A stretch of DNA of 54,344 nucleotides, from UHGV virus genome UHGV-0189308, one strand, 5' to 3'. The translations under genes and the position numbers were made by a program. Origin of the DNA: a virus. The notes beneath the pieces were generated by a model that was not told the DNA's origin, did not search any database, and saw nothing but the letters and a program-made list of their open reading frames with translations. Shown here in pieces: positions 9,011 through 54,344 of the stretch (positions within the stretch are counted from its first letter, which is position 1; each line of letters starts with the position of its first letter).

Positions 9011-9029
9011 ATCGAGTTTTGACCAATGG
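9010..9029. repeat. 20-bp direct repeat gaatcgagttttgaccaatg (copy 1)
   Basis: Identical copy at 9457-9476. The pair brackets the Rrf2-like gene. Confidence 0.6.
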
Positions 9030-13199: not shown

Positions 13200-13368
13200 A
13201 TTACATGTTCGCGATAATCGCGTCGCCAAACTCTGAACATTTCAGCAGTTTAGCGCCTTCCATCAGACGTTCAAAGTCATAGGTCACGGTCTTGGCGGCG
13301 ATAGCGCCTTCCATGCCTTTGACGATCAGGTCTGCGGCTTCGAACCACTGCATGTGGCGCAGCAGTAG
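13200..13368 (-). other. icd: icd (isocitrate dehydrogenase) 3'-terminal fragment: phage-borne replacement end / att core homology
   Basis: Minus-strand translation gives [53 protein letters not shown], nearly identical to the Icd C-terminus. No icd sequence continues upstream of 13368. Flanked by int on one side and AT-rich cargo on the other. Confidence 0.85.
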
Positions 13369-18017: not shown

Positions 18018-21000
18018 TTAGCTAAATGAACTGCTGTCCGTTCGGAAGGCGGTTGCGGTGATGTTCTCGACTGTGCAGGTGTAATCAATCGCGGCATTTC
18101 GACCTGTAGCCTTGATAAAGAAGCCGACATTGTTGTAGTCAGCATCCAGGCGCGCGGCAAACCGCAATTCAAAGGCCGTGGTGCCAGCTGTGATATTACC
18201 GGCATCGACGAAGATACGGCGGGTTACCTCCTGCCCACCAATGTTGAACGTAATATCAGAGGTATACCCCAGGCCACTGCCCGTCCCATAGGTCTGGCAC
18301 ACCAGGGTGCAGGCCAGAACCACTGTCATGCTATACCCCCTGTTCTGATACGCACCGTTCCGCTGTACCGTCTGGTTGCGGCGGAAGGTCAGGCTGTCGT
18401 AACCTTTTGCCACCGCAATGTCACCGATGAACGCATCCGCCTGGACAGTGCCACGGAACACGCCGCTATTCGCTTCGACCCTGCCACGAACGATCACGTT
18501 ATTGAACTGCGAAGAGCCATCCTTGGCGATACGCCAGCCTTGCGACCCGTCAACAAAGTTATTCGAGCGGATCTCGTTGCCGATCTTCGCGTTCGTGATG
18601 GAACCGTCCGCGATTTTGGTTGAGGTCAGGGAACTGTTTTTGATACGTGCCGTATCGATATACAGTTCATTGCCTTCGGCAATCATCACCGGCACTGCCG
18701 TCGCATTGTTACGGTTAAACAGCGAGAAGCGGTCGGCGTAGAGGATCATGTCGCTCGTTTCACCATTGCTGCCCAGCGTAATCCCCGCGCCAACATTCTT
18801 CCCGTTAACCGTCTCAACCTTCATCGACCACAGCGAACTCACCGTACCATTCACATCCGCCACGGTTTTAGCGGTGTTTTGAACGGAAGCGCTGAGATCC
18901 CCGACACTGGATGTCAGGGTCGTCTGCTGCGTTGCCAGCGCCTCCAGTGCCGTTGCATGCGTCTGCTGGGTACTGGTGATACTGGCCACCGATTTAATCG
19001 TGTTGTCCAGCGTCGTCTGGTTTTTGATGTTGGCGGCCGCCTGCGCGTCAATCTGCGACTGAAGCGAGGTATTCAGGCTGGCCTGTGTGCTCTGGCTGTC
19101 GCTCAGCGTTTTCGCCATGTTATCGACGCGGGAGTTGGCGTTATCCACTTTCGTGGCCAGTGCCGTCTGCTGCTGCGCCTGAGCGGTAATTTTCCCTTCG
19201 GCATCCGTTACGCGCGCCGTCAGGCCGCTCACGGCGCTCGCCGTCGCGTCAGAGGCATCCTGTGCCGCTTTCGCATCGGTAACATCCGTGATGACCAGAT
19301 CGTCGATATACAGTGAATAGCCAGGGGTACCGTTGCCGGTGGCGCCACGGGTGGAGATCCAGACCACCGCGCGTGTTCTGCCCGCCCCGTTGTTACTGGC
19401 GATACCCGTGAATTTCACCCACTTATCGCGCGCGCCCAGAGAGGCTTCGCTGACAGTGACCGCCGCCTGCCACGCATTTTGCCCGGCAGCATTCTGCGAC
19501 TGGATACCGACCAGCGTTGTCCACCCGGAGGAGGGCGCCTGATCCGCCGGCATCATGGCCCAGAACTCAAACCGGAACTTCGCGTCCTCACGGACTGACT
19601 GCCAGGTGCCAAGCTGTTTATCACTGTTGCCGCTGTTGTTCTCATCCCGTCTCAACTTCAGGCTCTTACCGCCGGTGAATTTCTGAGACACCACCACAAC
19701 GGCGGTGCCGTTCCCGCCCAGCACCTGGCCATCGCTGTAGCTTTCAAACGTACCGTCAACCCACGGATTAGCTCCCTGAGTGCGGATGGTATTGATGGTG
19801 CTGGTCAGCGACGTGATGCTCTGCGACTGGCTGGTGATGGTGTTTTCCACCTGGCTTACGCGACCGGTCAGTGAACTCACCGCGGACGTGTCAGCCTTTT
19901 TACCCAGCTCCGTATTCATCGTGGTCAGGCTGTTCTGCAGACTGGTGAGCTGCTGCGACTGCGAATCCAGTTTACCCTCGGCAGACGTCATCCGGGTGGT
20001 CAACCCGGTGACAGCGCTTTGCTCTGCTTTCTGACTGACCGCCGCATTCGTGACGGCCAGATCGCCGCTGAGTTTCGTCAGCTGCTGCGCCTGGGTGGTG
20101 ATAGCCCCTTCCGCAGCGGTGACGCGGGTATTCATCTGTGAGATGGCCCCGGCATTAGCAGCGATATCCTTTTCATCCGTAACATCGAGGACATGGAAAT
20201 CATCAAAATACATTGCCCCCGCGCTGAGGAAGGTTGTCAGCTGGAAACTGGCCGTCGTGGTCTTCGTGGCTTTCCAGTCAAACGTTACCAGTTGCCAGCC
20301 AGAACTAAACGGTCCGTAGTTTGAGCCAACCAGCAGGCCAGTGCTGTCGGCCACACGAAACTTCGTGTTACCCGCATCTTTAATCGTGGTCCCCGGGTCC
20401 TGCTTCGCCCATACCCCCATGCGGTAGGTACGGCCCTGCGTGATACTGATTTCCTGTCCGACCAGGTTCGACTGGCCGGCGGACATTTTCAGCGCCTTGT
20501 TACCCGAGTGCGGAACCTGTAAATCGGCCACCGTCGCGGTACTGCTCCAGCCGGTAAAGCCCGCCGCGCCGCGCTCAAAACTGCCGTTGACAATGAGGTT
20601 GCCCGGCATTTTCCCGCTGGCGTCAATATCCGCTGCCGTCTGGCTCAGGCTGTTACTCAGTTGCGTCAGAGAATCCCCCTGCGCACTGAGTGTTTTGCCC
20701 TGCTCCGTGACCTGGTTCTGCAGGGTGTTCATCGCGCTTGCATCCGCTTTTTTGTTCACGTTCGCATTCGTCGTGGCCAGATCGCTGCTGAGTTTTGTCA
20801 GCGCGCTGTTAGCTGCCGCGATGTCATTCCCCTGCTGCGTCACCGTGCCCTGCAGCTGCGTCACCGCTGTCGTGTCAGCCTTTTTACTCACCGTATCGTT
20901 TGTCGACCGGAGGCTGTTCTCCAGCGAGGTGGTCCGCGTGCCGATGCTGCTGAGCGTATCGCCCTGCTGGCTAACCGTGGTGGTCAGTGAATCCACCGCT

Positions 21001-24000
21001 TTTGCGGTCGCATCTGCGGTTTTCTGCGCACTGTTCGCTGCCGTCACGTTACGCATATGCCAGTCGGCAGCGTACCAGACGGTGCCGAACGGGCTGCTCT
21101 GATTAACCTGCAGGAACGGCCGCAGCAAGCTGGTATCGGATGGCACCGTAAAGCGCCAGGTGGCTCGTTTCCACGCGGTGGTGGTCCTGGTGTTGCCCCC
21201 GGACGCTTTCGCTCCGATACCACCGGTGGCGGTGGTGGCCCGACCGATATAGAAGTTAAAGTCAGCGCTGCCGGTACCACACGCTACCAGAGCAGACATT
21301 TCGAAAACGTCGCCCGGCGTCACGGCGATATTGTTGATTTTTGGCACATGGTCTCGCCCGGCCAGCCGGACGGCATACCTGAACGGGCAGTCAGCCGGCA
21401 CACCATCGGCGGTGGTCTCCACCACGTCATAACCCATGCGGTCATACGCCGGATCAAATGACGGGTTTGGAATGTAATCATCCCCGGCAGCATTCCCGGC
21501 GTTCACCGCTGCCGTCAGGCTGACAATGTTGCTGTTGGCTGCCGTGAGGCCTGCCTCGGTTTTCTCCACCCGGCCAGTCAGCGCGTTAAGCGCCGTCTGA
21601 TCCGCTTTGGTGTTGACCTTATCGGTGGTGCTGCTCAAATCGCCCTGCAGCTTCGTGATAGCCTGCCCCTGGGCGGTGATTTTGCCTTCCGCACTGGTGA
21701 CCCGGCTGGTGAGATCACTCACCGACTGCGCGCTGGCCTTTTGTGCCACGTTGTTGTTGGTGGTGTTCAGGCTGTTCTGCAGATTCGTGATGCTCTGAGA
21801 CTGCGCGGTCAGTTGCCCCTCGGCGTTCGTCACCCGACTGGTGAGGCTATTAATGGCCGATGTGTTCGCGGTAATACCGCTGGCCGCATCATCCGGACTC
21901 GGTGACCAGTCGGTCAGCACGGTCCCGGTTTCCAGCTGAGGGCGGCAGAGCCAGACTTCTTTGTCGGCAGACGTCGCGCTTTCCAGACGCGCGGCAATCA
22001 GCCGTTTGGTGCCACTGGTGGCAGGAATAACCCATTTCACCCAGTAACGCGCCCATGCGGTGGTCAGTTTCGTGACCGCCTTGCCGTCACCGGCCCCGCC
22101 TTTAACGCCCTGGCTGGTTTCCGTGGTGGTGGTGTTCGATGGGTTATAGAAATAACTCGCCATCTCCTGCCCGTCATAAGCCCCTTTCGCATAGAAGCTG
22201 AATACAAATTCCGTACGCCCGGTAACTTCCAGCGTCTGTTCATCCAGTTGGGTAAAACCGGATGCACCTTTCGCCAGCCGGGTGTAGGCCACGCGGTCGC
22301 CCAGATAGGTCTCTGTGGCGTGGCGGCTGCTCCATCCCTCCAGTGTGTCCGCATTGCGGATAAGGTTGGTCCCGCCCACGGCCAGGGAGGAAAAGTTGTT
22401 TTCCAGGTTCGTCAGCGCGCTGCTTTGCGTGGTCAGATCCCTGCCATGCTGTTCAACGGTATTCTGCAGGCTCTGCAGCGCCGTTGCATCAGCCTTCTTC
22501 GCCACATTGCTGTTGGTCGTGTTCAGGCTGTTCTGCAGGCTGGTCAGGCTGTCTCCCTGCGATCTCAGGCTGCCTTCGGTAGCCGTCACGCGAGTCGTCA
22601 GATTCGTCAGCGCGCTGGCATCGGCCTTGCCGCTGATATCCTTTCCTAGTTGCGTCACATCTGACTGCAGTTTCGTGATCGCGCTGCCCTGAGACGTAAT
22701 ATTCTTCCCGTTCTGCGTGACTGACGCGGACAGACTGGAAAGCGCCTGCGCATTCGCATCGGCGGCATCGAGCGCCGCTTTCGCATCGGTCACGTCAGTG
22801 ATGATCAGATCATCAATCAGGAAGGCGTCACCCAGGCGAACTTTTGGTGTGTTCGGGATGGAGATCCTCACCATTGCCTGTTTCAGCGCGGTTCGGTTGT
22901 TGGTCAGATAGCCACTGACTTTTGTCCAGTTGTCCACCGACAACCCGGAGACTTTTACGTTCAGGCCAGGCCACGACCAGCCATTGGCAGAATCCTGGAA
23001 GGAAAATCCGAGCACCATATAAACGGTCGGATCGGCGGTCGAGCCAGCCGGCAACTTAACCCACGCCTCCACGTAATAGACCGCGTTATCGCGAACCTGC
23101 ATGCCCGAAAAGATATGGGTATCGTTATTATCCGTCGCGTTCGGGTTGTACTCCGTACTGCGCGTAACACGCAGGCTTTTAGTCCCGCTGTGCGCAGCTT
23201 CACTGGTGATAACGGCGCGGGCATTACTGAGAACATCGCCGACGGCATAGGATTCAAAACTGCCGTCCGGCAGTACGTTGGCTCCCCGTGTCGCCTGCTG
23301 CTTCAGCGATGTATTCAGGCTGGTCAGGCTGTCGGCCTGGCTACGGATATCCTTTTCAGTCTGGGTAACCCGGTTGGTCAGTGAACTGACCGCCGACGCA
23401 TCGGCCTTCTTCGCCACATCGCCTTTGACCCCTTCCAGCGCGTTTTTCAGCGCCGTGATGGATTGCCCCTGCGATGTCAGGGTGTTCCCCTGGTTCGTCA
23501 CCGTCCCGGTCAGAGACGAAACAGCATCGCTGGTCGCCTTGATGTTGGTTTCATCGGTGATATCAAACACCCGGACGGAATCGAGCCAGATTTCACCGTT
23601 TGTCGGATGAGAATAAAGTTTGAAGTTCTGCCCGTCCGCGCCGGCAGCCGTCAATCCGGTTTCCCAGGTGATGGTTTGCCAGTCAGTGGTCAGCGTGACC
23701 GTTTTATCCTCATACGTACTGTCCGTCTGGCCGATTTTGTTCTGGCGACGGATCAGCAGACTCATCGCGCCGGAAACACCTTTGGCCTTCACCACCACCC
23801 GGTACTTGCGCTGGCCATTCAGCGGCACCGGCTTGTTGTTGTTGGAGAAGATCCCCGGACTGGTGTTAGTCGTCCGGTTCAGTCGGACCCCCGCTTTCCC
23901 GTCCCCGAAATCGCCAAAGGTCACACCGGCAGGATACTGAATATCCCAGGCCGTGCTGCCCTGCAGAAAATCAAAGTTCGGGATCAGGTTGTCGCCGGCG

Positions 24001-27000
24001 TTGCGGGTGGCCGTCAGCACATTCGCCAGATTTGTCAGCTGCTGGCTCTGTGTGGTCAGTTTCCCTTCCGCCTCTGTCACCCGGTTATCGACCGAAGTCA
24101 GTGCCGTTGCATCGGCCTTCTTCGACACATTGCTGTTGGTCGTGTTCAGGCTGTTCTGCAGGTTCGTCAGCTGCTGGCTTTGTGAGGTGATGGCCCCTTC
24201 CGCTGTGCTGACCCGGCTCGTCAGTCCGGTAACGGCGCCGGCGGTGGCATCGATGTCCACCCGGTCGGTAACGTCAGTGACGTAAAAGTCATCGAAGTAG
24301 CGGCTGCCGCTAATCAGATAGTTACTCAGCGTCACCGGCAGGCTGGCTGTCTCCGTCGCTTTCCAGCGACCGGAAATCAGGGTCCAGTTTGTCCCCACCG
24401 TACCGCTGTTGTATGGACGCTCAAAAACCGGCTGGCCGGCAGAGTTGCCGATCCGCAGCTTGTTGTTCCCCGCGCCATTATCCGTCGTCGCTCCGGGTTC
24501 CTTGACCCACACCCCGATTTCATAGGTTCGCCCCTGAATAAACGGGATGTATTGCCCCGGAGTCACATTCCCCGGATCAACCTTCAGCGCCCGCGTCCCG
24601 CTATGAGGAACGGAAACCTCCACCACACTGGTCGCGGTTGACCGCCCGGCGTAACCATCCAGCCCACGTTCAAACGAGGGATTCACGACCAGGTTACCCG
24701 GTATCTGCCCGCTGGCATCGATATCTGCCGCGACGTGCGAGAGGCTGTTCGACAGGTTCGTCAGCGAATTGCTCTGGCTCTCCAGCGTTTTGCCCTGCTG
24801 CGTCACTTTCGTGTCGAGCGTGGCCAGCGCTGTCGCATCGGCTTTCTGCGCCAGCGCTTTATCGGTATTCGCCAGATTTCCGGTCAGTTTCGTGATGGCG
24901 CTGTTCGCAGCCGTCAGGTCGTTGCCCAGCTGTGTGACGGTATTGGTCAAATTCTGCACCGCTGTCGCATCAGCCTTTTTGGCCACTGCGGCATTGGTGG
25001 TTGCCAGCCCGTTTTCCAGCTGGGTTGTCCGGTTGCCGGTCGAGGTCAGCAGATTACCCTGTTGCGTCACGGTGGTGGTCAGGGAGTCAACCGCCGCCGC
25101 CGTGGCATCCGCAGTATCCTGAACCTTTTGCGCCGCTGTCACATTTCGCATATGCCAGTCCGTAACGAACCATACGGTGCCATACGGGCTGTTCTGCGAG
25201 ATCTGCAGGAACGGGCGGATATAACCCCTGTCCACCATCGCCTGCGTGACCTTGAAGCGCCAGGTGGTTCTCTGCCAGGTCGCGGAGGGTGATTTCCCGC
25301 CCCCCGCCATGAGTGGCGCACCGGTGCTCGTATCTGGCCGAACGGCGGTGCCAACATACAGATTAAAATTCGCCGTGCCGGCGCCGCAGGCAACCAGTGC
25401 GCTGATCTCAATCACATCGTTAAGCGTGGCCGGGAACGCGGCAAACTCAGGATGGTGATCCCGGCTGGCAATTCGGGCCGCATAACCATACGGGCAGCCA
25501 GGAGGGACCTCCTCAGCCGTCGTGGATACGACGCTAAACCCCATCTGGTCGTAAGCCGGGTCAAATGTCGGGTTGGGAATTAAATCTCCGCCTGATGCGT
25601 TTCCGGCCCGTACAGCGGATTTCAGCGAGGTAATGTTGGCGTTAGCAGCCGTTAGCCCGGATTCCGTTTTCTCCACTCGTCCGGTTAGCGAGTTCATCGC
25701 CGTCTGATCCGCTTTGCTGGCCACGTTCACGTCTGTCTGCGTCAGCGCATTCCGGAGTTGGGTGATGCTCTGCGAATTGCTGACCACCTCGTTGCCAATC
25801 TGGCTGACATTCGAGCTGAGCACGCCGGCTGCGTTTGCCAGCGCGGATACCCCGAGACCGGAGTACATCTCAGCAACCTTGTCTGACAGCTTCAGGCCCA
25901 GGTTGATATACGCCTGGCCGGTCCACTGATTCACCAGAAATTCAACGGTGTTCCAGCCGCCTTTCAGTTCAAAACTGACGGTATTCCAGCTGGCGTTACC
26001 CCAGGCGACCTGAACCCCGTTCACAAATATGGCGCCGGTATCATCAAAAACCCTGGCGCCGGGCGCCAGTGTGATGGTGGTATCTGCGGCCACTTTCACC
26101 TGGCAGGAATACAGCGCGATCAGATAGCTGCCGGCGGACGTAAAGTCCAGTTTGGCCGCGTCGGCCACCTCATCCACGACCGTTGGTGCCACAGCGCGAA
26201 CATCGCTGAATGACGGGACTGTCCCGGCGTTAGCCAGCTGCACCGGATAGAGTCGACGGGACCAACGATTCGGCTGGCCATTGACCAGTTGATTCGACAG
26301 GCTGGTGATGCTGTCAGTATTGCTGCGAATATCCCGCCCGTTTTGCTCTACCTGCTGCGTTAAGGCAGTGACCGCAGCCGCTTCGGCTTTCTTCGCCAGC
26401 GCGGCATTTGTCGTGCCCAAATCGCTCGTCAGTTTCGTGATGGACTGACCCTGGTTGGTTATCCTGTCGCCCTGCCGGGTAACAACAGACTGCAGCCCGC
26501 TCAGCGCCTCATTCGTACCAGCCAGGCCCGTTTCCGTCTGGCCAACCCGGTTAGTAAGCGATGTTAACGCGGCGCCCTGCGATGTCAGCGTGGCGCCCTG
26601 TTGCTCAACTTTCTGCGTCAGGGACGTCAGCGCGGCCGCATCGGCTTTTTTCCCGAGGCTGGTTTCCAGGCCACCGATACGGCTCGCCTGCGCGCTCTGC
26701 TCTGTCGTCAGAGAACTCAGTTCACCAGAAACAGCAGCTTTGTTGTCGTTAAACTGCGTCTGCAGGGACTCTCTGGCCTTAACTTCCGCCGAGATGGCGG
26801 TAACGCGCGCGGTTTTTTCCTGGTACAGCAGCCCGGAGGTGACTTTCTCCAGATCGCTCCCATCATAGGAGCCACGCATCTGCGCCGCCAGCGTGCTGCG
26901 TGCCTGCGCTTCGGCGGTCAGCGCGTTACTCAGCGTACTGCGCACATCCTGCAGAGCCGCCGTACTGGCGCCGGGTGCTGGCCGGCCAACGGCGATCCAG

Positions 27001-30000
27001 TCGAATTCGATAAAGTTGCTGGCATCCTGCTGGTTCGTCAGGTCCAGGCGAATACGATCAATGTTCCCTGTCCACGGAATATCACGCACCGTCAGGGTTG
27101 CCACCCCATCGGCATATTCCGGCTCAGCAACAATGTATCGCTTCGTGTTATTGAAGTTTTCGCCGGCAGACACCCAGCGGATCTCACCCGCCCAGACGGG
27201 TTTGCCGGTTTTACGAAAGCGCAGCATGATGAAACGGTACGCCGCACCATCGACAGCCAGCCCGCCAGGAGAGGTAATGTACGGATCGGTGGCGCTGTCC
27301 GCCGGGCGTAACCAGCCATCCTGTGACACACCCGGTACGCCGGCGCTGCCGGTCCAGCCCTCGGTCGTCTGATTGTTGAAATGCCAGATAACCTGCGAAT
27401 CGAACTGGATATTAGCGCCGGCAGCGAGGCTGGACATTTCCCGCGCCAGATTTTCATCGGCGGTCTTCATCACCTGAGTCAGGCTCTCGATACTCGCCTC
27501 AATCCCCTGCGTTGCCGCCAGCAGTTCATCAGCGGCCTGTGCCGCCTTCGCGTTAACATCGGCGATACGATCCGCGGTCTCCTGCTTCACCGCACTGGTC
27601 AGCGTGGTGTTGACCTGAGACAGCGACTGCTTCAGGCCATTTTCGGCAGTCTTTATCTGCGCATTCAATGCGGCATCGCCGTCGGCCAGCGTTTTGTTGA
27701 CCCTGGCAATCTCCAGGTCGATGGTGGCGTTGATTTCCGCAGCCGTATCAGTGACTGACTGTCTGACCTGGGTGATGCTGTCGGTCAGCGACTTGTTCAC
27801 AGTTGCGATCTGCTTGTTCGCATCTGCGACGGCGGATTTCGCCTCCTGAACACCTTTGTTTGCCTGAGCCAGACCAGAATCGAGAGCCTCATTGACCGAG
27901 GTTATCTCATCCGTGATGGTTTTATTCACGGCGAAGATCTTCCCGTCAACATCAGCAGTGATGCTTTTCGCCGATGATTCAATATCCTGGCTGACCTGCT
28001 TCGCCTGGTCTTCGGCTTCCTTACGCAAAGCTTCAGCGGTCTGCTCCAGTTCCTGCTGCGTATTGCGGATACCTTCCTGCGTTTCGCTAATGGTGCGCTG
28101 CGTTTCCTCCCAGGCAGCCGTATCCTTGATCGCGTCAGTCAGGTTTTCGTAGTAGTCATCAAAGTTATCGCTGGCCATCCCCTGGACCCAGCCGGTCCAC
28201 GGGCTTTCATTGCCCAGACGATCCACAAGGCGCGCCCGATACCAGAATTCTGCGCCCATACTGAGGCCCATCTGCTGATAGCTTTTCCCCGGATAGGCCA
28301 CGTCTGATAACAGCATCGGCGCACTGCCGTCCTGATTTTTGCTGTACTGCAGTTCCGTGCGCAGCGTATCCCCCGAGCCGGTCGGGAATTCCCAGCTAAC
28401 CTGGACCCCATGAACCAGCGAACGGGTTGCCAGCGCCAGCGGCGGAAGTGGGGCACCAGACTTACCGGTCAGCTCGGTTTCTTTCGAGATCCCCCATACG
28501 GATGCGATATCCTGCGCGTTAATCGCCCGCACACGCACAACGTATCGACCGGTATAGATACCATCGACCTCAAACCGCGTATTGCCGGTGCGCGGCAGGT
28601 TAATCCAGTCACCATTGTTCTGACGCCACTGCATTTCATACGCAATCGCATTTTTCACCGGCGACCAGGTGGCAACCAGGGTGGTGATGCCAATCCCCTG
28701 CGACACCCGGTAGAGGCTGGAAATGGTAATGTCGTCCGGTGCCTCCTGTCCCCGTGGGGGAACAACGGTCACAGGACGGTCTTCGATCACCGCGCCATCA
28801 TCCACCCGGGGAAACTTGTTCGGGTTATACGGCAGGCCGTTAATAGTGACCGTGCCATCGTTATTGTTCACAACGCGCTTAACCCTGAATTGCTGAATGG
28901 CCAGGTCTGACTGATCCAGAATCCAACCCGCCTCCGCCTGCGGTGCCGGGTTATACTCCTGCTCTACCGTAACAATACGGTCCTGCACCCCCTGAACTTT
29001 ACGCCCCTGCGACTTTCCGTCCGGCAGGTTAATGATGAGCGTATCCCCGGCTTTTGCCGCGACCGCGCGGTCGAGAGTAATCCTTTTTCCTGAGACTGCC
29101 GCCACACGACCGCCGTTCTGCCGGCCAGCCATAGGGGCATTGTTGATACCGATAACCTTGCCAACACGGGGAATGCGACCCTCCATCCCCGTTTTAAACT
29201 CAACGCCATTGTCGTCGCGGTTTGTCTCGATGGCGTAGGCGCCGTGGCGCTGCGCCTCGGATTCACGTGTACAGCCAATCCGGGACAGCTCGATAGTGTT
29301 AAATCCGAAGCGGTCTGCAATCTCCTGCGAATAGACGCTGGCTTGATCGTCCTGATAGTTATTCTGTGGGTTGCTGTAAGTGACGATGGCCGCGCTATAG
29401 TTGGTCCGCTCGGACGTGCTGGAGAACGTGAAGGAGCCGACAATATTCGATTTGTTGAAAACAAAATCGGGGTCCATCTCACGCGGCATATCGGCATCAA
29501 CCGACAGCAGATTATTCGACCAGCTAATCATGCCCCGAAAAATGTTCGCGAGATCCATTAATACGGTCCAGGCGTCAGTCCGCTGGGATATATAGAGATC
29601 GCAGAGATAACGGGCCTCTTTTCCGCCAGCACCATCTGAGACCGGCGCATCGCAATACTGGCCGATTTGATACAGGGTCCATTTATCCACCTGGTCGGAC
29701 GAAATACGCTTTCCAAGTCCATAGCGTTTGTTCAGCACCAGATCGTAAAAAATCCAGGCGGGGTTATTCGACCAGGCCCACTTGAAGGTCCCGTCCCAGC
29801 TTCCGCTGTAGGTACGTTCGACAGGGTCATAGTTCGACGGTACGCGAATGACCAGCCCCTTTGCCTTGACCGTCACGGTCGGTGTCCGGCCATCAAAAAG
29901 CGTTGAATCGAACTGAACGAACAACAGCGCGGTGTTCGGATAGCGCAGTTTGGCGTCAACGATTTCCGTTATCGACTCGATACGACTCACGTCCGCCGTT

Positions 30001-30614
30001 TTGTTATTATTCTTATTCTCAGTCAGACGGCGAACGCGGATCTGCCAGCCGGAGTTTGCCCGCGGCAAATCGATGCGGTAGCTGCGCTCATAGCCCGTGT
30101 TAGCTATGCCATCGACGGTATCGCGGCCATATTCGGTATACGTGCTGCCGTCTGTTGAAACATCGATAGCGAACTCAATGCGGTAACCATCTTTGCCACC
30201 GCTGTCACGCAGGCTGTAGACCCCGTTCGGAAATTTAATACGCAGGCGAACAGCCGACAGCTGCGTGTTGTTGATCGCCTTTACCCACGGAGTGCCAGAC
30301 TTGATTTCCGTGCTGACGCTGATTTCGTTTTCGACCGCCGGGAAACCCTGAATGTAATCCTGGTCAACCAGACCACTGCGCCACTCCCACGTCACGCCCG
30401 GAAAATTTTCATGGCCATCGGCATCGAGCAACGGCGTACCGTCGAGGCAAATATCCTGACCGGTAAACTGACCGGCAATTTGACCTTCTGACAGTGCCAG
30501 CAAGATTTTCATATAGGCGACCGAGGCAATTTCCGTCCCGCGATTCTGCCCGTTATCCTTGTTACCACCGTTATTTTTAGCGCCAGCGATTCCTTTTATT
30601 TCAGCCATTCTCAA
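18018..30614 (-). CDS. giant J-like central tail fibre / host-specificity protein (4198 aa) with internal repeat modules
   Basis: N-terminal about 1100 aa align with lambda J (LRYPNTALLFVQFD vs QCYPNTALVGVQVD; VPSNYDPVERTYSGSWDGTFKWAWSNNPAWIFYDL vs VPSNYNPQTRQYSGIWDGTFKPAYSNNMAWCLWDM). C-terminal about 400 aa match the J receptor-binding end (ILYADRFSLF... vs FLVAANRIAF...). About 2.8 kaa of inserted repeats lie between: fibre-type heptad segments (...LT.L.N.L..TN..V.KKADATA...), six CBM4/9-like jelly-roll modules (NPSFERG / NGSFERG / DGSFESY motifs) and two copies of an approximately 200-aa domain (IPNP.FDPAYD...DWHMRNVTAA). Probable ATG at 30608 with a GGAG SD. Confidence 0.8.
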   Translation of the reverse strand: MRMAEIKGIAGAKNNGGNKDNGQNRGTEIASVAYMKILLALSEGQIAGQFTGQDICLDGTPLLDADGHENFPGVTWEWRSGLVDQDYIQGFPAVENEISVSTEIKSGTPWVKAINNTQLSAVRLRIKFPNGVYSLRDSGGKDGYRIEFAIDVSTDGSTYTEYGRDTVDGIANTGYERSYRIDLPRANSGWQIRVRRLTENKNNNKTADVSRIESITEIVDAKLRYPNTALLFVQFDSTLFDGRTPTVTVKAKGLVIRVPSNYDPVERTYSGSWDGTFKWAWSNNPAWIFYDLVLNKRYGLGKRISSDQVDKWTLYQIGQYCDAPVSDGAGGKEARYLCDLYISQRTDAWTVLMDLANIFRGMISWSNNLLSVDADMPREMDPDFVFNKSNIVGSFTFSSTSERTNYSAAIVTYSNPQNNYQDDQASVYSQEIADRFGFNTIELSRIGCTRESEAQRHGAYAIETNRDDNGVEFKTGMEGRIPRVGKVIGINNAPMAGRQNGGRVAAVSGKRITLDRAVAAKAGDTLIINLPDGKSQGRKVQGVQDRIVTVEQEYNPAPQAEAGWILDQSDLAIQQFRVKRVVNNNDGTVTINGLPYNPNKFPRVDDGAVIEDRPVTVVPPRGQEAPDDITISSLYRVSQGIGITTLVATWSPVKNAIAYEMQWRQNNGDWINLPRTGNTRFEVDGIYTGRYVVRVRAINAQDIASVWGISKETELTGKSGAPLPPLALATRSLVHGVQVSWEFPTGSGDTLRTELQYSKNQDGSAPMLLSDVAYPGKSYQQMGLSMGAEFWYRARLVDRLGNESPWTGWVQGMASDNFDDYYENLTDAIKDTAAWEETQRTISETQEGIRNTQQELEQTAEALRKEAEDQAKQVSQDIESSAKSITADVDGKIFAVNKTITDEITSVNEALDSGLAQANKGVQEAKSAVADANKQIATVNKSLTDSITQVRQSVTDTAAEINATIDLEIARVNKTLADGDAALNAQIKTAENGLKQSLSQVNTTLTSAVKQETADRIADVNAKAAQAADELLAATQGIEASIESLTQVMKTADENLAREMSSLAAGANIQFDSQVIWHFNNQTTEGWTGSAGVPGVSQDGWLRPADSATDPYITSPGGLAVDGAAYRFIMLRFRKTGKPVWAGEIRWVSAGENFNNTKRYIVAEPEYADGVATLTVRDIPWTGNIDRIRLDLTNQQDASNFIEFDWIAVGRPAPGASTAALQDVRSTLSNALTAEAQARSTLAAQMRGSYDGSDLEKVTSGLLYQEKTARVTAISAEVKARESLQTQFNDNKAAVSGELSSLTTEQSAQASRIGGLETSLGKKADAAALTSLTQKVEQQGATLTSQGAALTSLTNRVGQTETGLAGTNEALSGLQSVVTRQGDRITNQGQSITKLTSDLGTTNAALAKKAEAAAVTALTQQVEQNGRDIRSNTDSITSLSNQLVNGQPNRWSRRLYPVQLANAGTVPSFSDVRAVAPTVVDEVADAAKLDFTSAGSYLIALYSCQVKVAADTTITLAPGARVFDDTGAIFVNGVQVAWGNASWNTVSFELKGGWNTVEFLVNQWTGQAYINLGLKLSDKVAEMYSGLGVSALANAAGVLSSNVSQIGNEVVSNSQSITQLRNALTQTDVNVASKADQTAMNSLTGRVEKTESGLTAANANITSLKSAVRAGNASGGDLIPNPTFDPAYDQMGFSVVSTTAEEVPPGCPYGYAARIASRDHHPEFAAFPATLNDVIEISALVACGAGTANFNLYVGTAVRPDTSTGAPLMAGGGKSPSATWQRTTWRFKVTQAMVDRGYIRPFLQISQNSPYGTVWFVTDWHMRNVTAAQKVQDTADATAAAVDSLTTTVTQQGNLLTSTGNRTTQLENGLATTNAAVAKKADATAVQNLTNTVTQLGNDLTAANSAITKLTGNLANTDKALAQKADATALATLDTKVTQQGKTLESQSNSLTNLSNSLSHVAADIDASGQIPGNLVVNPSFERGLDGYAGRSTATSVVEVSVPHSGTRALKVDPGNVTPGQYIPFIQGRTYEIGVWVKEPGATTDNGAGNNKLRIGNSAGQPVFERPYNSGTVGTNWTLISGRWKATETASLPVTLSNYLISGSRYFDDFYVTDVTDRVDIDATAGAVTGLTSRVSTAEGAITSQSQQLTNLQNSLNTTNSNVSKKADATALTSVDNRVTEAEGKLTTQSQQLTNLANVLTATRNAGDNLIPNFDFLQGSTAWDIQYPAGVTFGDFGDGKAGVRLNRTTNTSPGIFSNNNKPVPLNGQRKYRVVVKAKGVSGAMSLLIRRQNKIGQTDSTYEDKTVTLTTDWQTITWETGLTAAGADGQNFKLYSHPTNGEIWLDSVRVFDITDETNIKATSDAVSSLTGTVTNQGNTLTSQGQSITALKNALEGVKGDVAKKADASAVSSLTNRVTQTEKDIRSQADSLTSLNTSLKQQATRGANVLPDGSFESYAVGDVLSNARAVITSEAAHSGTKSLRVTRSTEYNPNATDNNDTHIFSGMQVRDNAVYYVEAWVKLPAGSTADPTVYMVLGFSFQDSANGWSWPGLNVKVSGLSVDNWTKVSGYLTNNRTALKQAMVRISIPNTPKVRLGDAFLIDDLIITDVTDAKAALDAADANAQALSSLSASVTQNGKNITSQGSAITKLQSDVTQLGKDISGKADASALTNLTTRVTATEGSLRSQGDSLTSLQNSLNTTNSNVAKKADATALQSLQNTVEQHGRDLTTQSSALTNLENNFSSLAVGGTNLIRNADTLEGWSSRHATETYLGDRVAYTRLAKGASGFTQLDEQTLEVTGRTEFVFSFYAKGAYDGQEMASYFYNPSNTTTTETSQGVKGGAGDGKAVTKLTTAWARYWVKWVIPATSGTKRLIAARLESATSADKEVWLCRPQLETGTVLTDWSPSPDDAASGITANTSAINSLTSRVTNAEGQLTAQSQSITNLQNSLNTTNNNVAQKASAQSVSDLTSRVTSAEGKITAQGQAITKLQGDLSSTTDKVNTKADQTALNALTGRVEKTEAGLTAANSNIVSLTAAVNAGNAAGDDYIPNPSFDPAYDRMGYDVVETTADGVPADCPFRYAVRLAGRDHVPKINNIAVTPGDVFEMSALVACGTGSADFNFYIGRATTATGGIGAKASGGNTRTTTAWKRATWRFTVPSDTSLLRPFLQVNQSSPFGTVWYAADWHMRNVTAANSAQKTADATAKAVDSLTTTVSQQGDTLSSIGTRTTSLENSLRSTNDTVSKKADTTAVTQLQGTVTQQGNDIAAANSALTKLSSDLATTNANVNKKADASAMNTLQNQVTEQGKTLSAQGDSLTQLSNSLSQTAADIDASGKMPGNLIVNGSFERGAAGFTGWSSTATVADLQVPHSGNKALKMSAGQSNLVGQEISITQGRTYRMGVWAKQDPGTTIKDAGNTKFRVADSTGLLVGSNYGPFSSGWQLVTFDWKATKTTTASFQLTTFLSAGAMYFDDFHVLDVTDEKDIAANAGAISQMNTRVTAAEGAITTQAQQLTKLSGDLAVTNAAVSQKAEQSAVTGLTTRMTSAEGKLDSQSQQLTSLQNSLTTMNTELGKKADTSAVSSLTGRVSQVENTITSQSQSITSLTSTINTIRTQGANPWVDGTFESYSDGQVLGGNGTAVVVVSQKFTGGKSLKLRRDENNSGNSDKQLGTWQSVREDAKFRFEFWAMMPADQAPSSGWTTLVGIQSQNAAGQNAWQAAVTVSEASLGARDKWVKFTGIASNNGAGRTRAVVWISTRGATGNGTPGYSLYIDDLVITDVTDAKAAQDASDATASAVSGLTARVTDAEGKITAQAQQQTALATKVDNANSRVDNMAKTLSDSQSTQASLNTSLQSQIDAQAAANIKNQTTLDNTIKSVASITSTQQTHATALEALATQQTTLTSSVGDLSASVQNTAKTVADVNGTVSSLWSMKVETVNGKNVGAGITLGSNGETSDMILYADRFSLFNRNNATAVPVMIAEGNELYIDTARIKNSSLTSTKIADGSITNAKIGNEIRSNNFVDGSQGWRIAKDGSSQFNNVIVRGRVEANSGVFRGTVQADAFIGDIAVAKGYDSLTFRRNQTVQRNGAYQNRGYSMTVVLACTLVCQTYGTGSGLGYTSDITFNIGGQEVTRRIFVDAGNITAGTTAFELRFAARLDADYNNVGFFIKATGRNAAIDYTCTVENITATAFRTDSSSFS

Positions 30615-49888: not shown

Positions 49889-50340
49889 GAAAGTAGGCAT
49901 TCTAGGTAGTAACGAAACGAAGGAACTCCTAATAGTCCGAGCTACCGATTTACCAGGAAGCATTCACTTTTGCCGTTACGTTCTATAAACATAGAAGGGC
50001 AACCGCAAAAGTAAACCCACTATGAAATATTCAATATGCTTAGTGACAGTGTGGTGCCGGGTGCCTCCCGGTGAGCATGCCCCAGTCGGCATGGCCCGCG
50101 CTGCATTTACAGGTTTCTGTAACTGACTGGTCGCCCCTCCGCATAGGGGGATTCACCACCTCAATAATTTATGATGCAAACATTCAAAGTGTCAATATCT
50201 GACCATACCGCCAGCGCCTCTGCCATAATATAAGCCAACAACGCCCACTTAAATTGTATGCATTCTAATACTTAAAGCTATTGCGAAGCCCTGACTCTAT
50301 GTAGCACTCACTGATATCAGGTAAATGCGAGGTAAGTAAA

Positions 50341-50787: not shown

Positions 50788-51390
50788 CTAATTCGCATGA
50801 ATCGCCTTATGAACAGAAAGGAAAGCTTTTGCTCTGAATATTTCAAGGCACCAGCGCACTCTTTTCCGGGCCTCACTGTCTGTTAACCATGGAGCCACCA
50901 GCTGTATTTCCCGTGTTATGTCTGAGATTTTTTTGCGGGTGGTGTAATAGTTAACGCCAACGAGATAAACAGGATCACCCGTTTCAAATATCGCCAGTAC
51001 ACATCGTTCAACAAATTCAACATCATCCTCAGTGATCGCAGCGTCAATGGCGACAGTTGGAGGTTTTGGCCACAAAATGGCATGCGCCCTGCTTAGTGCC
51101 TGCCGCCCGCGATAGCCTTCACTCCTTGCCTGCTCGATTGCTGCCGTAAAGCGCTCTAATGCTCTATCTGACCAGTGATCACCCTTCATACCTCGCCAGC
51201 ATGAATGTCCTGATGGTTTGCGCGGGGCCGCACCTCCTCTCATACCTTCTCCCCATACAGTAAGCAGAGATTTTATCCAGGCGGACTGAATGCCATTAAG
51301 GGGAGTGAATCGGCCCAGCCAGCTTTTGCGCGGGGCGGCGGCCACTGTTTCTAATCCTGCACGGTGTAGACGGCGTTGACGTGGTGTCAT
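50788..51390 (-). CDS. putative late-gene antiterminator (Q-like) by position
   Basis: 200-aa basic protein located immediately upstream of a promoter-terminator unit and the lysis genes. No confident sequence match to lambda Q. Confidence 0.4.
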   Translation of the reverse strand: MTPRQRRLHRAGLETVAAAPRKSWLGRFTPLNGIQSAWIKSLLTVWGEGMRGGAAPRKPSGHSCWRGMKGDHWSDRALERFTAAIEQARSEGYRGRQALSRAHAILWPKPPTVAIDAAITEDDVEFVERCVLAIFETGDPVYLVGVNYYTTRKKISDITREIQLVAPWLTDSEARKRVRWCLEIFRAKAFLSVHKAIHAN

Positions 51391-51406: not shown

Positions 51407-52450
51407 CTACGCCAGAACGCCGAGCGCGTATGCCCGGTCCAGCAATTTAATAATTAATACCGGCTGGGTGCCGTATTCACGCTCAAAAGCGGCAGGGTCA
51501 TGGTGCAAAGTGCGGTGGTGCTTGCGGCATAATGGGATCGTAAAAATATCGTGGGCCTTGGTGCCTACGCCGCCCTGCCCCCAGCCAATAAGATGATGTG
51601 CATCATCTGCAGGCTGCCCACAGCACATACACGGCTGTTTTTTAACCCATGAGATAAAGTCAGCTGATAACCATCGGCTCCGCTTAGGTCTCGCGAATAG
51701 TGTCGCCGGTGCAACAGGATCGACGTTCACAGGAACCAGAGGTTTGCCCGGCGTTGTTTTTGCCGTTGGCCTGATTGCTTTTTCGAGACGGGGAGAAAGA
51801 ATGCTGGTGGCCGGTACCGACGGAACAATCTCACTCTCCCTGTAAACCGATTTAATCCCATCGTCTTTAATACGCAGGGATCGGCGCGCCATTTCTTCTG
51901 TAATTTCATCGCCAATCCCGGCGCCTACCGCCCACCAGCATAACTCTGCCAGTGACAGTGCCCGCTGAGCGTCCAGGCCAAGCGCGATGCGGGCAGTGTC
52001 GATTACCCAGTCAGCGTTATTAACACCTACCAGTTGATCGAGGGTTTGTTCCGTTTGGTTTTTCAGCTCATTATCACAGTGCCAGCATGCGATTATTACA
52101 CCCGTCGAATGGCGAAACGGGACGAGCTCATGGTGATGGTAATCGGAATGTGTCCACTGACAGTTTTTAACCTGCCTACGCAACCATGACTCGAGGGCAC
52201 TAACCCCACCAGCTGCAGTGATAACTGCCTTCTTCATGAAAAAAGGTCTGATCCCTATATCATCCCGCAATGGCTGCCGGGCATCAGGAAGACGTCCACT
52301 GGGTATCTTTTTCATGCTTGCCGGCGGTATTTCAACAAGAACTCGGCCGGCACCGAATAACGGCATTAATTCACTACCCGGCTTAAGCAGCACAATTCCA
52401 AGATGGCGTGCAATATCCACGTTAAGCAAAGCTCGCATCAGTCCCTCCAC
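51407..52450 (-). CDS. DUF968/NinG-like protein with C-terminal HNH-like Cys/His motif
   Basis: C-terminal CMCCGQPADDAHHLIGWGQGGVGTKAHDIFTIPLCRKHHRTLHHDP. nin-region position upstream of Q. Confidence 0.45.
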   Translation of the reverse strand: MEGLMRALLNVDIARHLGIVLLKPGSELMPLFGAGRVLVEIPPASMKKIPSGRLPDARQPLRDDIGIRPFFMKKAVITAAGGVSALESWLRRQVKNCQWTHSDYHHHELVPFRHSTGVIIACWHCDNELKNQTEQTLDQLVGVNNADWVIDTARIALGLDAQRALSLAELCWWAVGAGIGDEITEEMARRSLRIKDDGIKSVYRESEIVPSVPATSILSPRLEKAIRPTAKTTPGKPLVPVNVDPVAPATLFARPKRSRWLSADFISWVKKQPCMCCGQPADDAHHLIGWGQGGVGTKAHDIFTIPLCRKHHRTLHHDPAAFEREYGTQPVLIIKLLDRAYALGVLA

Positions 52451-52641
52451 ATCTTCTGTATGTAGGTCCTGTCAATCCGTGGCGGCTTCTTCGATTCCGG
52501 CAACAACACGCGGATCTCCCACGATGCAAAGTCTCTGGACAAGCTCTTCTCAACCACACAGTTATTTTTACGGTATCGCTCCACCAGCTCTGTAGCCTCA
52601 GCCTCTGAAAGTTGCTCGTGTAAAAACCAACTTTTCTTCAT
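52438..52641 (-). CDS. hypothetical small protein
   Basis: 67-aa ORF. Start overlaps the upstream gene stop (ATGA). Confidence 0.3.
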   Translation of the reverse strand: MKKSWFLHEQLSEAEATELVERYRKNNCVVEKSLSRDFASWEIRVLLPESKKPPRIDRTYIQKMWRD

Positions 52642-53135
52642 GGCTGATCACCGAACAGTCGCAAAAACTCAATCGCTCTTTCACGCGCGCCGGGTTCTTC
52701 AGCGATCATTTCCTGCAGCAGCTGCACGGCGAGCATAGGCTCCTTTCGCCCGACGATGGAAATTCCTCTGGAGACACGGCGAGAGAGTTTTATAAAATTT
52801 TTTCTCTCTAACGCACGCAGATGCAACAGGACAGCATTAGACGAGCTAACGCCGAGCATATCGGCCAGCTCAGATAGCGTAGGTGGGTAGCCATGCTGAT
52901 TGATGTAGGCCACCAGCAGATCGAAAACTTCCTGCTGTCGAAAAGTTAGTTTTGAAGACGAAAGCAAACCGGCGCTCGATGAAGGAGCACCAGTCTGATG
53001 GGGTTTTGATACTTCGGGGGTTTGCGTCATGGTTTCTCTCCGCGACGCAGCAGGTATAGGTTGTTCAGGCCTATGACGGGATTGTAACAGAACCAGGGGG
53101 AACCTGGTAACCAACTCCAGACTTAGCCTTTTCAA
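52638..53135 (-). CDS. LexA N-terminal DNA-binding-domain-only protein (no S24 peptidase domain)
   Basis: [55 protein letters not shown]...SRGI matches LexA [58 protein letters not shown]...SRGI. Probable start MTQTPEV (about 53030). Confidence 0.6.
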   Translation of the reverse strand: [165 protein letters not shown]

Positions 53136-53328
53136 TCATCTGTGAAAAAAGAGAGAGAGTCCCCACGATCTCATCCGGCTGCAAAGGCATAAACGAAACA
53201 GTGTCGCCGCGCCGGTACATTAAAGCGCGCTCACACACAGGAAAGGATGTAAGACGAGCAACGATCACCCCATCGTCGCATCTGATAATTGCATAGCCGG
53301 TGTTCGGCATTTCTTGTTTTTTACTCAC
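53071..53328 (-). CDS. hypothetical protein in SOS-box operon (antirepressor candidate)
   Basis: 85-aa ORF between the dinI-like gene and the LexA-DBD gene. Confidence 0.3.
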   Translation of the reverse strand: MSKKQEMPNTGYAIIRCDDGVIVARLTSFPVCERALMYRRGDTVSFMPLQPDEIVGTLSLFSQMIEKAKSGVGYQVPPGSVTIPS

Positions 53329-53372
53329 AGCAAAATCCTCAAAATAAACCAGGCAAGCTACTGGACCTCAAC

Positions 53373-53624
53373 TTAATAGAACCAGTCATCAGCGCTTTCC
53401 CAGGTGTCCTGCAGGATTTCCTCTACACGTTTTTTATCTCCGTCCATTCCACCAAGCACGGTCAACCCATCGGAGCTGGCCCGACGAATCACAAGACTGC
53501 AGTTATTAAAGTTTTGATCCAATCGCCGCAGTAGCTCCTTCTCCAGAGCAGGCACAGCGCCATCCGGCAATTTTTTTTGGCGATCAATTGTGATTTCCAC
53601 TTTCATAACTAGCTCCTCACGCAA
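53373..53624 (-). CDS. dinI: DinI-like protein
   Basis: MKVEITIDRQKKLPDGAVPALEKELLRRL...EEILQDTWESADDWFY closely resembles DinI MRIEVTIAKTSPLPAGAIDALAGELSRRI...SEILQETWESADDWF. Real start is ATG at 53606 with a GAGGAG SD. Confidence 0.8.
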   Translation of the reverse strand: MREELVMKVEITIDRQKKLPDGAVPALEKELLRRLDQNFNNCSLVIRRASSDGLTVLGGMDGDKKRVEEILQDTWESADDWFY

Positions 53625-53625
53625 G

Positions 53626-53645
53626 TACTGTATAAATAAACAGTA
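53626..53645. promoter_or_regulatory. LexA (SOS) box TACTGTATAAATAAACAGTA
   Basis: Perfect CTGT-N8-ACAG with an AT-rich spacer, about 20 nt upstream of the dinI-like ATG. Confidence 0.7.
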
Positions 53646-53688
53646 TACTTGTTAGGTGAAATGTTCAAGCGTTTAATGCCACTTTTCG

Positions 53689-53946: not shown

Positions 53947-54344
53947 TTAACTGGGAACAGCTCACTGAGGCTTTGCATGGTTCATATCTCTGCACACTGC
54001 TTCGTTTCGCGGTCCTTAATGCGTCCAGAAATCTGCCACAAGGGCGACCTTATGCAAGAGTCGCTTTGCTTAATTTCAGCACTCACTTCGCTCCGGCTGC
54101 GGCCTTGCCGTTTCCGCTTTGCGTTCTGCCCTAGCACCGAGTGTTAGTTCTGGTGTTGGGGAGCGAGATTACCTAATCACTGAATTAAAAAAATGACTTT
54201 AATTTTTTCATTAAAACTGTTATTAAAATTTATTAAGAATAAGGAATAAGAAATTTCTGTAATTATTATATTTATGTCTGATTTTAACAGGATATCGTCG
54301 TTAGATGAGAAGTGGATTAACTAATTGATTTAGAAGTTTAATTA

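Follow-up and report, generated by a model that had tools for sequence, protein, structure and literature searches.

A predicted SOS-responsive operon with a dinI homologue, a candidate antirepressor and a truncated LexA homologue in a temperate Klebsiella phage genome

The dinI operon and its promoter

The virus genome UHGV-0189308 was analysed as one stretch of 54,344 nucleotides (nt), which is called the window in what follows. The subject of the analysis is an operon on its minus strand, in which six tightly packed open reading frames (ORFs) lie behind a LexA (SOS) box, with gaps of 44, 40, −4, −13 and 16 nt between successive frames. In the order of reading, its elements are the following, with protein lengths in amino acids (aa).

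53663-53668, minus strand: putative −35 hexamer TTGAAC, read from the sequence
53626-53645, minus strand: LexA (SOS) box, TACTGTATAAATAAACAGTA, identical to the 20-nt consensus at 18 of 20 positions
53373-53603, minus strand: dinI homologue, 76 aa, the first gene (PF06183, E 2.6e-25; phrog_189)
53071-53328, minus strand: 85-aa ORF with a GTG start and a GAGGA ribosome-binding site (no Pfam match; phrog_1813)
52638-53030, minus strand: protein with a LexA_DNA_bind domain only, 130 aa (PF01726, E 1.9e-20; phrog_362)
52438-52641, minus strand: conserved 67-aa ORF (phrog_1212)
51407-52450, minus strand: DUF968/HNH nuclease-like protein of the YdfU type, 347 aa (PF06147, E 5e-70; phrog_96)
50788-51390, minus strand: Q-like late antiterminator (phrog_753, E 1.2e-54)

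An earlier note on this DNA had placed a perfect SOS box before a DinI homologue. The box is present, and it is the single good one, though 'perfect' has to be read as the 18 matching positions given above. It overlaps the promoter of the operon at the −10 region, and 22 nt separate its end from the dinI ATG downstream. The left half of the box contains the putative −10 hexamer (TATACT or TACTGT), and TTGAAC sits 17 nt upstream of TACTGT. No other site in the window comes within three mismatches of the LexA consensus, and 100 dinucleotide-preserving shuffles gave no such site at all. A scan of the 54-kb window for weaker boxes did not find a second credible SOS box. The bare CTGT-N8-ACAG core, with two matches in the window against 0.56 expected, is weak evidence when taken alone.

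A base-for-base alignment was also obtained for the promoter and operator with the dinI promoters of the Gifsy prophages of Salmonella. The TTGA of the −35 hexamer and both half-sites of the box are invariant in an alignment with Gifsy-2, the locus of the Gifsy antirepressor GfoA, and the phages SPN3UB, Chris1 and Kp4865-4. The Gifsy dinI promoters are known by experiment to be controlled by LexA (PMC3121763; PMC8072944), and nalidixic acid induces the Gifsy dinI genes 14- to 23-fold (PMC8072944). In the related Klebsiella prophage record ST846-OXA48phi9.1, a second good SOS box, TACTGTACAAAAAAACAGTA, is located at 4181-4200 between a holin gene and two plus-strand hypothetical genes; the box scan found no counterpart of it in the window.

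The product of the first gene matches PF06183 over its full length (89 bits against a cutoff of 24.2 bits) and is 63% identical to the DinI of Gifsy-1. Its score against the NCBIfam DinI equivalog, 86.8 bits, is under the 111-bit cutoff for the chromosomal protein, which points to a phage member of the DinI family rather than to the host orthologue. Further downstream, the start of the 67-aa gene overlaps the stop of the gene before it (ATGA), and its product is 37% identical (E 3e-15) to STM1021.1n of Gifsy-2, the gene that follows irsA. The next gene had been labelled NinG-like in the earlier note. This label is not retained, as the protein matches DUF968 (PF06147) and the HNH-type phrog_96 and has no NinG match; the gene sits, nevertheless, in the position that NinG holds in the Gifsy phages. 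A terminator scan of the operon gave no convincing intergenic terminator and only weak intragenic terminator-like matches. Since the genes are packed or overlapping without a convincing terminator, one transcript probably runs through the gene of the LexA-type protein, the 67-aa gene and the DUF968 nuclease gene, and it may even extend to Q. In themselves, the generic scans for promoters and terminators neither prove nor break the operon.

The antirepressor candidate, its repressor and induction

The Gifsy prophages possess non-cleavable repressors, which are inactivated by small antirepressors (Lemire, Figueroa-Bossi & Bossi 2011, PMC3121763). Their LexA-controlled operon has the order dinI homologue, antirepressor gene with a non-canonical start codon, and irsA homologue; the antirepressor binds the repressor and is sufficient for induction (PMC3121763). 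The same authors assigned the Gifsy repressors to the DicA family and found the dinI-irsA region to be conserved in Klebsiella and other enterobacteria (PMC3121763). In the operons of Gifsy-1, -2 and -3, the antirepressors are GfoA, GftA and GfhA, and the repressors are GfoR, GtgR and GfhR.

The window shares with these prophages a homologous promoter with a LexA box before dinI, a small gene with a non-ATG start in the antirepressor place, a 66/67-aa gene followed by a nuclease gene and Q, and a short GfoR/DicA-type repressor without an S24 domain. It differs from them in that the third gene encodes a protein with the LexA DNA-binding domain only (LexA-DBD) and not irsA, and in that a DUF968/HNH gene stands instead of NinG. 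Further differences are that the host is Klebsiella and that some relatives carry recA in place of dinI. Judged by these likenesses, the core of the operon is the published Gifsy-type dinI-antirepressor switch. The elements that had led the earlier note to describe the operon as SOS-wired are all in place, but the published architecture, a dinI gene and an antirepressor gene behind a LexA box, had not been recognised there. No Klebsiella study of such a dinI-antirepressor module was found in the literature searched.

The suggestion that the 85-aa gene is an antirepressor candidate has gained in strength. The sequence of GfoA was recovered by searching viral contigs (IMG/VR) with the annealing part of the gfoA cloning primer of the 2011 paper. 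This search returned one identical 82-aa ORF in 35 loci and close variants in further loci; in the one locus inspected, this ORF is flanked by dinI and a 200-aa irsA-type gene, and the gfoA reverse primer also matches in 46 loci. By BLASTP, the 85-aa protein is 37% identical to GfoA (E 3e-12), and hhalign of the family profile against GfoA gives a probability of 98.3% with an E of 1.9e-14 over 74 columns. The gene occupies the same slot as gfoA of the Salmonella prophages, behind the homologous LexA-controlled dinI promoter, and its GTG start parallels the non-canonical starts of the antirepressor genes in the Gifsy phages. All the database names of this family in the sources listed are 'hypothetical protein'. 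The 85-aa protein can, on these grounds, be regarded as a candidate antirepressor of the GfoA family. Naming the family in this way would show how a common class of K. pneumoniae prophages responds to DNA-damaging antibiotics; the module is found in very many Klebsiella genomes, with one 90% cluster of the neighbouring gene containing 1017 member sequences.

Relatives of the protein are found at the same place in other phages. In SPN3UB (Salmonella) and Chris1 (Citrobacter), proteins of 57-65% identity are encoded between dinI and irsA or the 66-aa gene, and distant relatives (~36-38%) occupy the same slot in coliphage mEp237 and Klebsiella phage ST974-OXA48phi18.2. Each of these four loci has an SOS box just before dinI.

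The window as a whole is closest to the Klebsiella prophages ST846-OXA48phi9.1 (97.6% identity) and Kp4865-4 (96%); among E. coli complete genomes, no close DNA relative was found, with a single match of 72%. Kp4865-4 is colinear with the window through int, recE, the immunity region, O/P, a variable segment and the dinI operon. This colinearity indicates that the window represents a single temperate phage genome of ~54 kb, circularly permuted, with the junction across the window ends. The Pfam assignments of the early region (cro-like helix-turn-helix (HTH), YdaT-like, DnaT/O-like, P, Exo VIII, Xis and Int) fit this layout. Downstream of the replication genes, and across the ends of the window, comes the dinI operon; the replication and nin genes separate it from the immunity region, outside which it stands. 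An icd fragment at ~13200-13368 adjoins int (11956-13083) and matches the 3' end of the isocitrate dehydrogenase gene as found in lambdoid coliphages; its place beside int suggests that the attachment site attP is located in icd.

The repressor, the presumed target of the 85-aa protein, is encoded in this immunity region.

6660-7049, plus strand: phage repressor, 129 aa, with HTH_3 only and no S24 domain

The lack of an S24 domain had been pointed out in the earlier note, and it is borne out by the domain search. That the repressor gene might belong to another element was ruled out by the colinearity with Kp4865-4. The sequence of GfoR was recovered with primer le144, and the repressor is 36% identical to it over the full length (E 1e-19) and 27% identical to the repressor of Gifsy-2. 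It matches the NCBIfam DicA subfamily profile end to end (positions 4-132 of 135). By these matches, it is a short, S24-less protein of the GfoR/DicA family, encoded by the same phage as the operon. In the Qin prophage of E. coli K-12, the small antirepressor Rem, which was found by GfoA-based searches, inactivates the non-cleavable DicA-family repressor, and the spontaneous derepression of dicBF was reported to be RecA-independent (Ragunathan & Vanderpool 2023, PMC10448788).

A comparison with Kp4865-4 gives a hint as to the pairing of the two proteins. The antirepressor of Kp4865-4 is 98.8% identical to the 85-aa protein, and the repressors of the two phages are only 24% identical in the N-terminal HTH half and 63% identical over the 51 residues at the C-terminus. 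A motif of the repressor, L-x-L-[FY]-x-Q-L-P-x-x-E, is also kept in GfoR and GtgR. As the antirepressor and the C-terminal half of the repressor are conserved together while the HTH diverges, we infer that the antirepressor reads the C-terminal part of the repressor. If this is true, one antirepressor could induce heteroimmune prophages, and cross-induction is predicted between heteroimmune prophages with a common C-terminal half of the repressor. One antirepressor inducing heteroimmune prophages has been reported for Gifsy-1 and Gifsy-3 (PMC3121763).

Taken together, the operon is probably the SOS-sensing, Gifsy-type induction module of a temperate, icd-integrating Klebsiella phage, with its candidate antirepressor as the effector. 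In the lysogen, host LexA on the single, promoter-overlapping SOS box would keep the operon shut. Upon DNA damage, RecA would become active, LexA would cleave itself and the operon would be transcribed. The 85-aa antirepressor of the GfoA family would accumulate and bind the non-cleavable GfoR/DicA-type repressor, probably at its C-terminal part; the repressor would leave its operators, and lytic development would follow. The co-expressed DinI homologue would presumably modulate RecA filaments. An antirepressor-mediated induction of the Gifsy type had already been proposed in the earlier note, and it is the most likely route in view of the GfoA homologue, the homologous promoter and the GfoR/DicA-type repressor. 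The evidence obtained here consists of homology, synteny, and the conservation of the operator, of length and of gene order; from it we infer the SOS inducibility in Klebsiella, the binding of the antirepressor to the repressor, the extent of co-transcription and any function of the LexA-DBD protein.

Several observations weigh against this interpretation. The SOS promoter was not among the calls of the generic sigma-70 scan. The identity of GfoA to the 85-aa protein is no more than 37%, and a BLASTP comparison with GftA of Gifsy-2 found no similarity. The AlphaFold2 (AF2) model of the 85-aa protein, with four strands and a helix, has a mean predicted local distance difference test (pLDDT) score of 50.5 and is too poor for a fold search. 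The idea of a binding site in the C-terminal part of the repressor comes from a comparison of two phages, that is, of very few sequences. The operon in the window lacks irsA, which is the third gene in the Gifsy operon that defines the type. Further, non-polar deletion of dinI or irsA in the Gifsy phages left induction unchanged (PMC3121763), and the accessory genes, including the LexA-DBD gene, may therefore, by analogy, contribute nothing to the switch.

It is also conceivable, though rather improbable, that the 85-aa protein is not the inducer, that SOS control serves dinI and accessory functions, and that induction depends on the antirepressor of a co-resident prophage or on some other signal. 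Such a view can draw on the idiosyncratic specificity seen in Salmonella, where GtgR ignores GfoA and GfhA and responds to FsoA of Fels-1 (PMC3121763), on the identities of the pair to GfoA and GfoR, which do not exceed 36-37%, and on Rem/DicA of Qin, which works without SOS control (PMC10448788). However, an antirepressor-type gene and a cognate-type repressor gene occur together in this one phage, the operon box is the only SOS input in the genome, and the antirepressor and the C-terminal half of the repressor are conserved together in the heteroimmune relative Kp4865-4.

The pairing of an antirepressor with a DinI-like sequence under LexA control is also known from coliphage 186 (Tum) and from PSP3 and Fels-2 (TumA-TumB) (PMC3121763). 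In 186, the antirepressor and DinI parts are fused, and in PSP3 the antirepressor is followed by the DinI part; TumB of PSP3 is 38% identical to the DinI homologue of the window. Unlike the phage described here, 186, PSP3 and Fels-2 are P2-like, have a repressor of another family and carry no LexA-DBD gene.

The truncated LexA homologue and the exchangeable slots

The earlier note had also claimed that a protein with the LexA N-terminal domain only is encoded two genes after dinI. This description is accurate: PF01726 is matched, and the Pfam search of the 130-aa protein did not find an S24 domain, the protein being without the catalytic (Ser119/Lys156) and dimerisation domain of LexA. It aligns ungapped to residues 3-75 of E. 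coli LexA, and in the HMMER alignment the homology continues, with one two-residue gap, through the linker and the cleavage-site region to LexA residue 95. The protein ends ahead of the catalytic core, after about 105 LexA-equivalent residues, and scores 68.6 bits against the LexA equivalog TIGR00498 (cutoff 110.95), covering positions 2-99 of 203. At the position of the cleavage site, it has Ala-Glu (I-A-E-E-P-G) instead of Ala84-Gly85. By this homology, the LexA-DBD gene descends from a full-length lexA. A shorter subfamily of 105-108 aa is also known from SfV (orf42), cdtI (gp48), mEp460 and Stx phages; its Salmonella members keep V-A-G-E, aligned near V-A-A84-G85-E-P at the LexA cleavage site.

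A homology that passes the DNA-binding domain into the linker and cleavage-site region and then stops may look like a decaying remnant of a full-length LexA- or CI-type repressor, in which case the operon would be a relic without a role. The earlier note had itself raised a frameshifted remnant as a possibility. Homologues with identities as low as 52% and a length of exactly 130 aa are, however, found in Klebsiella, Raoultella, Enterobacter and Phytobacter, and the C-terminal tail, predicted with a pLDDT of ~83-87, is conserved in the family alignment. The next gene, itself conserved with Gifsy, overlaps the stop codon and leaves no room for an S24 remnant. To these may be added the 1017 members of the single 90% cluster and the gene order kept in 80 viral contigs. 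A frameshift was ruled out by this conservation of length and gene order and by the overlapping downstream gene, and the idea of decay in general is scarcely credible.

The gene order was followed in 80 IMG/VR loci with the 130-aa gene, most of which are close relatives and do not represent 80 independent events. The downstream order of LexA-DBD, 67-aa and DUF968 genes is kept in all of them. Upstream, the 85-aa gene is present in 79 and dinI in 75, and an SOS box lies within 2.2 kb upstream in 74. The 105-108-aa subfamily, in contrast, belongs to nin regions of the ordinary type (Dam, LexA-DBD, RusA), where no SOS box occurs within 3 kb; the LexA-DBD family as such is therefore not intrinsically SOS-wired.

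The AF2 model of the 130-aa protein shows 25 disordered residues at the N-terminus, a winged HTH (mean pLDDT ~90 for residues 31-90) and two C-terminal helices, 98-109 and 115-126 (pLDDT ~83-87). It superposes on the LexA-DNA complexes 3jso/3jsp at 0.6-0.7 Å over 66 residues with 52% identity. The conserved two-helix tail might substitute for the dimerisation domain of LexA.

The residues of LexA reported as DNA contacts are Ser39, Asn41, Ala42, Glu44 and Glu45 (PMC3091678). At these five positions the 130-aa protein has S, N, A, L and L, and thus keeps three of the five and loses both glutamates. The Klebsiella clade has LL, TL or VA at the positions of Glu44 and Glu45; the relatives in Raoultella, Enterobacter and Salmonella have mostly AE or AD, and many relatives keep S-x-N-A-A-A-E. 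The equivalents of Ser39, Asn41, Arg64 and Gly65, the last two of which form the wing, are invariant in the LexA-DBD family, and that of Ala42 is kept. With Leu-Leu in place of Glu44 and Glu45, binding of the 130-aa protein to SOS boxes is doubtful; the LexA-DBD family taken together, judging from its conserved residues, could plausibly recognise CTGT-like half-sites.

In the related phages, the third-gene slot is interchangeable and holds irsA, the LexA-DBD gene or nothing. It is irsA (~200 aa, NinB/Orf-like) in Gifsy, SPN3UB, mEp237 and ST974-OXA48phi18.2; BLASTP of the 130-aa protein against irsA of Gifsy-2 (STM1020) gave only a chance match of 11 residues. Chris1 has dinI, an 81-aa GfoA-like gene, a 29-aa ORF (2330-2419) at the third-gene place and then the 67-aa gene. 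Over a 70-nt stretch that spans the end of the 85-aa gene and the beginning of the LexA-DBD gene, its DNA still matches the window at 86%, which suggests that the third gene has been deleted in Chris1.

The first slot varies as well. In Raoultella and Phytobacter prophages, the module starts with a phage recA (353-361 aa) instead of dinI; recA is followed there by a 77-aa GfoA-like gene, then the 130-aa LexA-DBD gene, the 66/67-aa gene, in some loci RusA, and lastly DUF968 and the Q-like gene. The Raoultella locus has two tandem SOS boxes (1538-1574) before recA (1599-2684), with a strong intrinsic terminator just upstream of the boxes, and the Phytobacter locus has one consensus-like SOS box (1540-1559) before recA. 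Such loci indicate that the first and third positions of the operon are exchangeable among SOS-related genes, with the antirepressor as the constant element. What is new in comparison with the published systems is the truncated LexA paralogue in the irsA slot and the recA in the dinI slot of relatives.

One proposal for the 130-aa protein is that of a non-cleavable LexA surrogate on canonical SOS boxes, which, made once LexA is gone, would re-repress its own operon and the host SOS genes, as negative feedback or an SOS shut-off, or would silence rival SOS-inducible prophages, with DinI damping the co-protease activity of RecA. Its winged HTH, 52% identical to that of E. coli LexA, fits the DNA-bound form at 0.6-0.7 Å, the equivalents of Ser39, Asn41, Ala42, Arg64 and Gly65 are kept, and many relatives retain Glu45 (S-x-N-A-A-A-E). 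In 74 of the 80 loci the gene is behind an SOS box, and some relatives pair it with a phage recA behind one or two such boxes. The catalytic domain is absent, and Ala-Glu at the cleavage site is comparable to the aligned chain of the G85D mutant of LexA. LexA G85D is a non-cleavable Ind− mutant. On the other hand, two of the five contact residues (Glu44 and Glu45; PMC3091678) are Leu-Leu in the 130-aa protein and its Klebsiella clade, and the dimerisation domain is missing, with only the two-helix tail as a predicted stand-in. The 105-108-aa subfamily is found away from SOS boxes, the slot is interchangeable with irsA, and gp6 of phage GIL01 is a transcriptional activator whose binding site differs from LexA boxes (PMC6182141). 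A surrogate of this kind is unlikely. The earlier note had suggested that host SOS signalling may be tuned or rewired by a non-cleavable LexA mimic together with a RecA inhibitor; in view of the Leu-Leu recognition helix, the interchangeable slot and the neutral Gifsy deletions, this has to be treated as conjecture.

A related possibility, to which only a small probability can be given, is a non-cleavable LexA stand-in that is made once host LexA has been destroyed and acts on SOS-type operators with a half-site preference shifted in this clade. If this were true, the protein could close its own antirepressor operon, or reset or reprogramme the host SOS regulon in lytic growth. It could also keep rival SOS-inducible prophages and SOS-triggered defences silent, and the swap from dinI to recA would mark a wider phage toolkit for manipulating SOS. 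A truncated LexA paralogue that is produced from a LexA-controlled promoter, and that in sister phages is linked to a phage recA, would be a compact instance in which a phage may interfere with the SOS circuit or feed back on it.

Among truncated phage LexA homologues, gp6 of GIL01, a tectivirus of Bacillus thuringiensis, is the only characterised one; it binds a non-LexA site and activates the late promoter (Fornelos et al. 2018, PMC6182141). By domain search, LexA alignment and AF2 model, the 130-aa protein is a truncated phage LexA homologue of this type. It differs from gp6, which comes from a tectivirus of a Gram-positive host, is shorter and lacks the conserved two-helix tail, and it stems from an enterobacterial LexA, sharing 52% identity with the DNA-binding domain of the E. 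coli protein; each of the two appears to be derived from the LexA of its own host. It is quite possible, if somewhat short of an even chance, that the 130-aa protein is such a transcription factor, with its own operator at a delayed-early or late promoter, and that it came into the SOS operon only through nin-region mosaicism. Apart from the precedent of gp6, with its distinct site and late-promoter activation (PMC6182141), the family varies at the Glu44 and Glu45 positions (AE, AD, TL, LL, VA), as expected for diversifying specificity. It is widely distributed among the nin regions of lambdoid phages, immediately upstream of RusA, DUF968 and Q and with translational coupling, and its C-terminal helices are conserved. 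Yet the intergenic regions examined yielded neither a repeated palindrome nor a candidate operator: altered palindromes (xTGT-N8-ACAx) in the window did not go beyond chance, and short inverted-repeat scans of five intergenic regions gave nothing recurrent. The literature searched contained no study of, and no functional data for, an enterobacterial LexA-DBD-only phage protein. That the 130-aa subfamily is so strictly linked with the SOS operon would, under this explanation, be a coincidence of descent. If the protein is just another nin-region transcription factor, the locus is an ordinary one.

With respect to host LexA, the protein has a homologous winged HTH and linker (residues 3-95), in which the equivalents of Ser39, Asn41, Ala42, Arg64 and Gly65 are conserved. 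It departs from LexA in the missing S24/dimerisation domain, in Ala-Glu for Ala-Gly, and in Leu-Leu for Glu44-Glu45. Most likely, it is a DNA-binding protein derived from host LexA, with a specificity that has drifted from the canonical SOS boxes. Its place in the operon is consistent with an accessory, exchangeable nin-region regulator in the irsA slot, and it is probably not needed for induction itself.

Other features of the phage genome

Downstream of the Q-like gene, a promoter-like site (50759-50732, minus strand, TTGAAA-16-GATAAT) is followed by a GC-rich hairpin with a T-run (50667-50640, minus strand), an order which resembles the PR'/tR' arrangement for Q-dependent late transcription. 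Further downstream, a match to the small RNA STnc100 of Rfam is present at 49987-50192 (minus strand; 79.9 bits, gathering score 47).

A complete Gabija defence system occupies the variable slot of the nin region, between P and the dinI operon, on the plus strand, opposite to the operon: GajA at 19-1923 (PADLOC PDLC00097, 1095 bits) and GajB at 1920-3584 (PDLC00144, 880 bits). The AT-rich stretch 54170-54344 is probably the Gabija promoter region. In Kp4865-4, the same slot has other cargo. A PerC-like protein is encoded after P (3820-4266, minus strand), a YdaT-like protein (5766-6320, minus strand) occupies the cII position beside the cro-like gene, and an Rrf2-family regulator (9026-9397, plus strand) is located in the early-left region.

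Between attP/int and the tail-fibre genes, an EAL-domain protein (14003-14794) and a MASE2-GGDEF diguanylate cyclase (15051-16130) are encoded on the minus strand. These look like cyclic di-GMP (c-di-GMP) cargo genes, or morons; the GGDEF gene is also present at the end of the ST846-OXA48phi9.1 record. A single ORF (18018-30614, minus strand) encodes 4198 aa, about four times as many as lambda J; its product has a GpJ FNIII-A domain near the N-terminus and a tail-tip-fibre domain near the C-terminus.

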